NCBI GenBank assembly: GCA_963771465.1 | Contig: CAVYTU010000012.1 | Span: 1-64,000 of the forward strand | Source: an uncultured delta proteobacterium | GTDB lineage: Bacteria; Desulfobacterota; Binatia; UBA9968 | Reading direction: 5' to 3' | DNA length: 64,000 nt | Shown here: positions 42,721 to 43,445 of the stretch, one piece after another | Layout: each line of letters starts with the position of its first letter | Numbering within the stretch: position 1 is the first letter of the stretch | The notes under the pieces: generated by a model | The model's database searches: none | What the model was told of the DNA's origin: nothing | What the model saw: only the letters and a program-made list of their open reading frames with translations | Position numbers and translations under genes: made by a program

Positions 42721-43445
42721 GCGAGTGTTCGATCTGGTGGCGGAACCGAAACGTGCTGCTGGCGCCAGTACGTGAAGAAGGGAACGCCACTGGCTTCGGC
42801 TACGGGCGATCTCGGCATGATGCAGGTCAATCGCAACATCTGGCGCGGGGCCCGGAAGAGCCGGTCGATGAAAAAGCTTAAGTCGTTCTACAGTCGGCTG
42901 CTTGCTGTGCTGCGCCACCCGGTCGTGCGCGACGGCCAGTGGCAATTGCTCGAATGTACATCCGTCTGGGAGGGAAACTGGACCTGTGATTGTTTCCTCG
43001 CTTTTGCCTGAAGGTTCTGACGGCGAGCGGCTGCTGGTGACGGTAAACTACGCCTCCAACCAAAGTCAGTGCTATGTCCGGCTGCCGTTCACGGATCTCG
43101 GCAACGGCCAGTGGCGGCTAGAAACCTGCTTTTTTTCCGCTTTGCCAATTTTTTCCTCGAACCTCTGTGGAATCGGCAGTGCGTCGAAAGCGTGCAGATC
43201 ACGATGGCAGAAAACTTCGGTGTCGAGGGTCGCGGTAACTTTACGACCGCACCAGCGCGCTGCCCGACGTCGTGCAGGGGTACGTCGCGTGAGGTCATCG
43301 CGGCGGCGGTGGATCGAACCCAACCACCGCCAAACCGGAAATGCTCGTCCCTGCATCGGTCGTTTTTCAAAAACCCAAACAACGTCAATCTCAACGACTG
43401 CCACCAATGGTGGACTTATGTGCCGGGCGCCAACTGGCGCCAGCA
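42721..43445 (+). pseudogene. Patchwork of six gene fragments (patatin, SLT transglycosylase, GH13, zwf, inverted zwf 3' end, FGE/SUMF1)
   Basis: Direct alignment with 42097-42135, 35471-35751, 45934-46090 and reverse complement of 46761-46787; [25 protein letters not shown]. Confidence 0.85.

Follow-up and report, generated by a model that had tools for sequence, protein, structure and literature searches.

Kuo and Ochman have reportedly dealt with the extinction of pseudogenes. Bacterial pseudogene relics are reported to arise from deletional bias, with internal deletions at short repeats (PMC6054270). Here, we describe a 725-bp tract (42721-43445) in a stretch of 64,000 nucleotides, called the window in the following, from an uncultured delta proteobacterium (Desulfobacterota; Binatia; UBA9968; assembly GCA_963771465.1, contig CAVYTU010000012.1, positions 1 to 64,000). 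The tract lies between a patatin-like phospholipase gene and a phospholipase D-like (PLD) gene. It is a head-to-tail run of relics, six pieces from five gene families: patatin, SLT-transglycosylase, GH13 (alpha-amylase family), zwf (glucose-6-phosphate dehydrogenase), and FGE-sulfatase. With a probability of about 0.65, we read it as a collapsed, diverged second copy of a local gene block, which was reduced by deletions at short imperfect homologies and received one small inverted filler.

The tract resembles pseudogenes produced by deletional bias, as truncated and frame-broken pieces lie in an intergenic gap, the joints fall in short homologies, indels are ongoing, and no sign of function was found. 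In contrast to such pseudogenes, six pieces from five families are packed here into 725 bp, they derive from a diverged homologue and not from the resident genes, and the flanks of the tract are shared across species-level divergence.

In homology-facilitated illegitimate recombination, an insert is joined by homology on one side and by microhomology on the other. Pseudogenes from failed horizontal transfers have been described for prokaryotes (PMC522871). As in such transfers, redundant homologues of recipient genes would have been lost at our locus. The sister genome G003, in which a 5' stub of zwf is joined to an FGE relic and is followed by PLD and a full zwf, has the shape expected from foreign-DNA integration with one homologous and one illegitimate joint. 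Unlike in failed transfers, however, no donor was found in the genomes searched, and the second copy may be an old duplication within the genome.

For Streptomyces ambofaciens, it was shown experimentally that pieces of 30-83 bp from nearby regions are inserted at the scars of repair by non-homologous end joining (NHEJ), and that half of the scars have microhomologies of 1-6 nt (PMC5869714). A 27-nt inverted piece of the zwf 3' end in the tract is similar to these insertions, with a nearby source and Ku genes present in the genome. In contrast to the scars described there, the larger pieces of the tract (92-292 nt) are not copies of the genome's own genes. An identical endogenous piece from nearby, with a length of some tens of bp, was found only at 43294-43320 and not in the internal pieces of GH13 and zwf.

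Composition of the tract and codon signature of its pieces

Blastn and a repeat search, with which the window and the entire genome (G000) were compared to themselves, resolved the tract into the pieces listed in Table 1. A preliminary description, made from the sequence alone, had named six gene fragments, and all six are present near the positions given there. It had traced them to homologues of neighbouring genes, which holds for patatin, GH13, and zwf but not for SLT and FGE; the latter two are not neighbours in the window, where a second SLT relic lies upstream of patatin (41260-41337). Each piece is a small share of its gene (9-97 codons out of 334-493 amino acids or more), and the repeat search found no repeats shared between the pieces. 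Among the relatives used for comparison were G002, G003, G005, G011, G014, G017, G019, and G045. Closer donors were sought in 41 relatives and, in a second round, in 31 genomes of the genus.

The patatin relic (RVFDLVAE) can be followed over 42721-42759 against 42097-42135 (82% over 39 positions, genome-wide E value 0.01), of which the part given in Table 1 is the firm portion. It is 100% identical in G003 and in the metagenome contig L025 described below.

The SLT relic is 90-91% identical to G017 and G002 and 86% to G011 at the nucleotide level, and 75% identical to the G017 open reading frame (ORF) at the amino acid level. In this ORF, the Pfam SLT domain comprises residues 326-435. The paralogue in the own genome is distant (C19:146980-147080, 72-81% nucleotide identity; 50% amino acid identity across the whole protein). 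The second SLT relic has 79-83% nucleotide identity to G017, G011, and G002.

The best match of the GH13 relic among the 31 genomes of the genus is 78-80% identical. The internal zwf relic reaches 92% to G045; one nucleotide is deleted in it, and three residues are replaced (S>F, G>S, and R>P).

The inverted zwf piece (E value 5.5e-6 for the 27 identical positions) can be extended to 32 matches in 36 positions. The FGE relic was recovered by tblastn in two pieces, 43320-43391 and 43366-43449; the intact FGE-sulfatase genes of G019 and G005 encode 334-336 residues. A close FGE gene was not found in the own genome, where the best match has 38% amino acid identity. For the 16 bases at 43278-43293 and the spacer 42710-42720, no source beyond chance was found in the own genome or in the compared loci of relatives; in a MAFFT alignment, the 16 bases show a weak, non-significant resemblance to FGE.

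Table 1 Features of the locus, with positions in the window
Feature	Position	Strand	Remarks
Patatin relic	42721-42748	+	Copy of 42097-42124, 25/28 identical
SLT-transglycosylase relic	42749-42850	+	Residues 337-372 of the 468-aa SLT ORF in G017
GH13 C-terminal relic	42831-43122	+	77.5% over 298 columns to resident 35456-35750, E 1.8e-56
zwf internal relic	43122-43277	+	91.1% over 157 columns to resident 45934-46090, E 1.8e-56
16-base filler	43278-43293	.	No source match
Inverted zwf 3' end, stop codon included	43294-43320	-	27/27, reverse complement of 46761-46787
FGE-sulfatase relic	43321-43445	+	Residues ~89-132, two frames; 82-83% to intact FGE genes of G019 and G005
Patatin-like phospholipase gene, resident, left flank of the slot	41345-42709	+	ORF; intact 420-aa orthologue in G019 has Pfam Patatin domain
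PLD upstream region and PLD-like gene, right flank of the slot	43446-45079	+	ORF 43529-45079; Pfam PLDc_2/PLDc; 87% to G003
Second SLT relic, upstream of patatin	41260-41337	+	Residues 425-451 of the G017 ORF; 88% aa identity
Resident GH13 segment, counterpart of the relic	35456-35750	+	blastn, repeat search
Resident zwf segment, counterpart of the internal relic	45934-46090	+	blastn, repeat search
Resident zwf 3' end, source of the inverted 27-mer	46761-46787	+	27/27 match
Second relic joint	37750-38392	+	Lipoprotein-gene fragment 37750-38247 abuts GH63 3'-end fragment 38249-38392
G003 slot, piece 1			3' end of a DUF502-like gene; in G014, that gene lies downstream of GH13
G003 slot, piece 2			Membrane-protein gene and lipoprotein gene; collinear with G045 over 2.2 kb, 84%
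G003 slot, piece 3			Start of zwf, first ~43-60 nt
G003 slot, piece 4			Longer FGE relic, ~60 nt further 5' than in G000
Logan contig X1 record 3	42681-43010		Bridges joints
Logan contig X2 record 11	42633-43054		Bridges joints
Logan contig X3 record 22	42833-43176		Bridges joints
Logan contig X2 record 12	43205-43369		Bridges joints
Logan contig X5 record 29	43204-43384		Bridges joints
Logan contig X1 record 5	43266-43578		Bridges joints

The codon signature reveals the origin of the two largest pieces. In the 97 codons compared, the GH13 relic and the resident gene disagree at 16 first, 11 second, and 43 third codon positions, giving a dS of 1.35 and a dN/dS of 0.10. For comparison, the 21 pairs among seven full-length GH13 genes (the resident and six orthologues) gave a dN/dS of 0.11-0.26. 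The zwf relic differs at 3, 3, and 8 positions over 51 codons (dS 0.27, dN/dS 0.19). According to our own calculation, neutral drift of a resident copy should lead to a dN/dS of about 0.55, and a neutral copy at a dS of 1.35 should have changed at ~40% of its non-synonymous sites, while 12% were observed for GH13. Because the differences from the residents are mainly synonymous, the GH13 and zwf pieces are not decayed residents; they were cut from a functional, diverged homologue formerly under selection and have decayed little since. The decay so far comprises a few radical replacements (W>C in GH13, R>P in zwf), the single nucleotide missing from the zwf piece, and polymorphic indels. The preliminary description had counted 15 synonymous and 3 non-synonymous codon differences in 27 codons (43043-43123 versus 35671-35751), which we reproduced exactly, and its claim that the source was under purifying selection is borne out by the longer comparisons of 97 and 51 codons.

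Joints in short homologies had also been proposed, which is correct in general, but their extent varies. The patatin/SLT joint lies between 42748 and 42749. At the SLT/GH13 joint, the two sequences are imperfectly homologous over about 16-20 nt (42831-42850, CATCTGG.GCG.GG), which goes beyond the CGCGGG noted before, whereas GH13 and zwf have merely 1-3 nt in common. The inverted zwf piece joins the FGE relic at CCAC.CCGCC, and an 8-nt inverted repeat, GGCGGTGG (43305-43312) and CCACCGCC (43324-43331), is found at this joint. The 27-nt inverted piece, identical throughout to the resident zwf 3.4 kb away, is best read as a filler that would have been copied during end joining or template switching. 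Two Ku (PF02735) genes in the genome score above the cut-off, so end joining is available.

The tract in independent data and in relatives

Contig L025 (1350 nt) from an independent metagenome corresponds to 42173-43521 of the window with 97.6% identity and crosses all joints. A left-arm 29-mer, when compared with the publicly available metagenome contigs, matched this contig alone; the scan yielded no intermediate forms, the one contig being of the G000 type. The stretch is present in runs from 14 studies, and Logan contigs from four soil runs of four studies jointly bridge every joint with few differences (Table 1), with X5 record 28 also among the contigs placed across the tract. One of the four runs may be the source sample, and at least three runs are therefore independent. 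Gaps in the contig cover of single runs (e.g., X5 42888-43109) were not counted as absence. The tract is real and inherited.

The strains differ in small indels. Across the independent contigs, +GC or -3 nt occurs at 43010 and +GA at 43383, and others lie at 43439 and 43468. The 1-nt deletion of the zwf relic is the same in L025 as in the window. The resident patatin gene has three single extra bases relative to G019. One of them, at about 42019-42023, is probably a consensus error because the contigs of all four runs are without it. The single-base indels in resident genes are, judging from this one tested site, probably consensus errors and do not mark dead genes. Such indels lie at 34385-35915 (GH13), 41500-42709 (patatin), and 45359-46790 (zwf), and the cox genes are split in the ORF list, too. 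Hence, the split ORFs of GH13, patatin, zwf, and the cox region should not be taken as pseudogenes.

Gene order in the relatives matches the order of the pieces. G017 has GH63 - MlaC - TAXI part - SLT - GH13, and an SLT ORF lies directly upstream of GH13 in G017 and G011, i.e., in two of the three examined loci with this type of SLT. In G045, the order is TAXI - GH13 - DUF2252 - about 4.5 kb - lipoprotein - zwf - cox, and in G019, patatin is followed by an SLT-domain protein and then by an intact FGE gene. The SLT, GH13, and zwf pieces, all on the plus strand, are in the block order of the congeners, the inverted zwf end and the patatin relic excepted. This order implies that about 1.4 kb was deleted from SLT up to the C-terminal part of GH13, going by the distance in G017, and about 8 kb from there to mid-zwf, going by that in G045.

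G003 has the left flank in common up to exactly base 42748, the last base of the patatin relic, and the sequences agree again, with 95-96% identity, from the FGE relic on. The slot enclosed in this way measures about 3 kb in G003, as compared to 572 bp in G000, and is filled with four pieces (Table 1). G000 and G003 thus retain different and complementary remnants of one block order between the same arms, and no other observation speaks as strongly for a second block that was once complete.

At base 42748, G000 continues with the SLT relic and G003 with the DUF502-like 3' end, and CTGGTGG stands in the sequence just before.

The identity between G000 and G003 is a mosaic. In patatin, it amounts to 84-88% over 41421-41720 and mostly 94-99% from 41721 on, with one window at 91%, and it reaches 100% in the patatin relic. 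For the FGE relic together with the PLD leader, it is 95%, and for the PLD coding sequence 75-93%. The mosaic in patatin suggests, on sequence grounds, a recent recombination tract that may end near the slot. L025 gives another picture, as it diverges from G000 by 0-0.9% on the left, by 4.8% in the FGE relic, and by 11.8% in the PLD leader, the most diverged part. On the left, the relics differ by 0-0.7% and the patatin coding sequence by 0.9%, at few sites. Taken together with the unequal dS of the relics, the permuted SLT relics (see below), and the different DNA joined at 42748, this mosaic points to a plastic region in which congeners have recombined repeatedly.

Function and competing explanations

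No sign of function was found, and we regard the tract as non-functional DNA. An Rfam scan of 41000-45500 at E values up to 1 gave no match, and a promoter scan of 42500-43700 gave 0 promoter-like sites. In the same interval, 3 terminator-like sites compare with 1.3 expected, which is at chance level. DNA folding across the joints (42700-42780, 43095-43150, and 43270-43345) was not unusual, with z values from -0.2 to -0.9. The relics occupy different frames, and the strain indels at 43010, 43383, 43439, and 43468 break ORFs of 201 and 134 amino acids, so that no reading frame is kept across strains. For annotation, the long ORFs over 42902-43507 are spurious.

According to our favoured reading, the block (SLT - GH13 - ... 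- lipoprotein - zwf) would once have had a diverged second copy, located between patatin and an already truncated FGE gene that was followed by PLD. This copy could have been obtained from a congener through additive (homology-facilitated illegitimate) integration, or it could be an old duplication. Its redundant genes would have been removed through several deletions at short imperfect homologies. One joint would have received 27 nt copied in inverse orientation from the 3' end of the resident zwf nearby, in the manner of end-joining or template-switch repair, and small indels would still be accumulating in the tract. Since no intact block occurs in the 31 genomes of the genus searched, we infer the former intact copy, and likewise the way in which it was deleted and the source from which it came, while the pieces with their sources, their recurrence in independent data, the signature of purifying selection, the gene order of relatives, and the complementary relics of G003 were observed. 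The preliminary description had spoken of a second allele collapsed by serial microhomology deletions. This is the best-supported reading, given the dN/dS values, the congener order, and the G003 relics, but one simple collinear collapse does not apply because of the differing dS values, the inverted piece, and the permuted SLT relics.

Several observations weigh against the collapse of a second block. The dS values from the residents are fivefold apart for GH13 and zwf (1.35 and 0.27, from small samples); hence, one duplication event is insufficient, and later allele replacement or gene conversion is needed. The codon samples (97 and 51) are small, and a maximum likelihood tree of the GH13 segment (11 rows) fails to place the relic, with 6 of 8 inner branches open; in this poorly resolved tree, the terminal branch of the relic is 0.15 long as compared to 0.05-0.11 for the closest genes. 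The SLT relics are permuted, as residues 425-451 lie upstream of patatin and residues 337-372 downstream, and this order, the patatin relic, and the inverted zwf end call for additional events. Base 42748 is followed directly by different DNA in G000 and G003, which independent deletions do not predict. Among the 31 genomes, no source was closer than 80% for GH13, 92% for zwf (G045), and 91% for SLT (G002), and the intact block is absent from these genomes and from L025. The intact cluster that had been proposed for a search in related genomes was thus not found, and G003 holds a differently collapsed form of it.

The different DNA at breakpoint 42748 would suit a stepwise capture, in which the patatin-PLD gap is a break-prone site and repeated end joining there trapped, at each repair, a short piece from lysed relatives or from the own neighbourhood. 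The two Ku genes, the insertions of 30-83 bp at repair scars of Streptomyces ambofaciens (PMC5869714), and the 27-nt inverted zwf piece with its source 3.4 kb away fit well with such a process. However, the GH13 and zwf pieces are not resident copies (dN/dS 0.10 and 0.19), and foreign DNA is therefore needed. Moreover, every piece is homologous to a gene from the neighbourhood, either here or in congeners; SLT, GH13, and zwf follow each other as in the relatives and on the same strand; and G003 contains, in this slot, 2.2 kb of block DNA in collinear arrangement, which is well above filler size. We consider this course of events unlikely; the repeated capture of DNA from relatives, which the preliminary description had offered as its second option, accounts less well than collapse for the order of the pieces and for the pattern seen in G003. 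A single replication accident, in which serial template switching (MMBIR/FoSTeS type) stitched together pieces of the resident neighbours that then drifted, is highly improbable. It could account for an origin of the pieces within about 8 kb on either side, for the inversion of one of them, and for the short homologies at the joints, including the 8-nt inverted repeat at the inverted joint, but the divergence is mostly synonymous (12% non-synonymous change versus about 40% expected at a dS of 1.35), SLT and FGE are without a resident source, and G003 has the flanking relics in common and not the middle. Almost no weight is given to an assembly artefact, i.e., a chimera of strains or reads within a noisy long-read bin. 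The single-base indels in comparison to relatives (4 in GH13 versus G017, 3 in zwf versus G045, and 3 in patatin versus G019) and an estimated contamination of the assembly of 6.29% would agree with it; still, the same joints recur in L025 and in contigs of four runs from four studies, and G003 has both flanking relics. A strain chimera had been named beforehand as the outcome that would speak against the feature, and this recurrence favours a real one.

Two further explanations concern the present role of the site. The patatin-PLD gap might be a defined exchange slot with a break or recombination hot spot at 42748, where the relic arms (patatin 3' part and relic on the left, FGE relic and PLD leader on the right) serve as homology anchors for the swap or loss of cassettes among congeners; this seems quite unlikely to us. 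That the tract is kept for use, as a 5' regulatory region of PLD, as a small RNA, or as homology arms for cassette exchange, is more doubtful still. It could be taken in its favour that G000 and G003 are 95% identical over the FGE relic and the region upstream of PLD, as compared to 75-93% in the PLD coding sequence, that the tract persists in strains of several soil studies, and that the identity pattern is mosaic. The negative outcome of the Rfam, promoter, terminator, and folding analyses and the breaking of the long ORFs by strain indels argue against it, and so does L025, in which the region upstream of PLD is the most diverged part, ahead of the FGE relic. Given this divergence in L025, the similarity between G000 and G003 looks like recombination history rather than constraint. 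The suggestion that the relics act as recombination anchors found no direct support: the mosaic identity seen with G003 and L025 shows recombination in the region and not a role of the relics. Nor does the tract look like a silent-cassette or anchor system, as it consists of five unrelated families with no repeats between the pieces.

Other collapsed genes and meaning of the tract

Collapsed genes are common at the locus and in the genome. At a second relic joint within the window (Table 1), the lipoprotein fragment is 86-90% identical to G003 and G045 and the GH63 fragment 72-85% to the resident 33605-33681. The joint between 38247 and 38249 looks like the boundary of two homologous blocks. 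A SemiSWEET-like (MtN3_slv) ORF of 132 amino acids lies between GH63 and GH13 (33903-34301); it is present in G019 but not at that place in G003.

On C9, a PLD copy at 82339-83009 is without 937 internal bases, with 96.6% identity in its 5' part (to 43475-43884 of the window) and 98.5% in its 3' part (to 44821-45086 of the window), which are joined directly, and an MlaC paralogue (77%) lies 2 kb upstream of it. This C9 region (~80-83 kb) was considered as the second allele and rejected, as it contains only the MlaC paralogue and the collapsed PLD copy and no source of GH13, zwf, or SLT.

Congeners have comparable relics. GH63 is collapsed in G002 and G014, where about 2.2 kb or 1.1 kb is missing, and TAXI in G019, where about 590 bp is missing. 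There is also an N-terminal piece of GH13, next to a second GH63. The positions of these relics are L016 1108-1426 (G002), L021 10874-11280 and 17480-17967 (G014), and L018 14886-15267 (G019).

A rough genome-wide self-comparison gave 181 low-copy short pairs at 85% identity or more and 29 clusters with at least three sources, mostly in mosaic island-like regions. C2:3000-17000 as well as C9, C14 (927-967 kb), C15, C17, C18, and C19 hold large mosaics of 40-1100-nt pieces with 80-97% identity to several loci. These large mosaic regions are probably families of related mobile islands.

The tract offers no new biological system. It belongs to a kind already known, i.e., pseudogene relics, remnants of failed transfers, and repair scars, and represents ordinary genome decay that is unusually well resolved. 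It illustrates that relics can bear a signature of purifying selection inherited from their source without being functional. Taken as a collapsed second block, it would be a well-resolved record of how redundant genes are gained and lost in the large genome of a soil bacterium, where a diverged copy of a housekeeping block was whittled down by short-homology deletions, sister lineages keep different relics of it, and small indels still segregate among strains.

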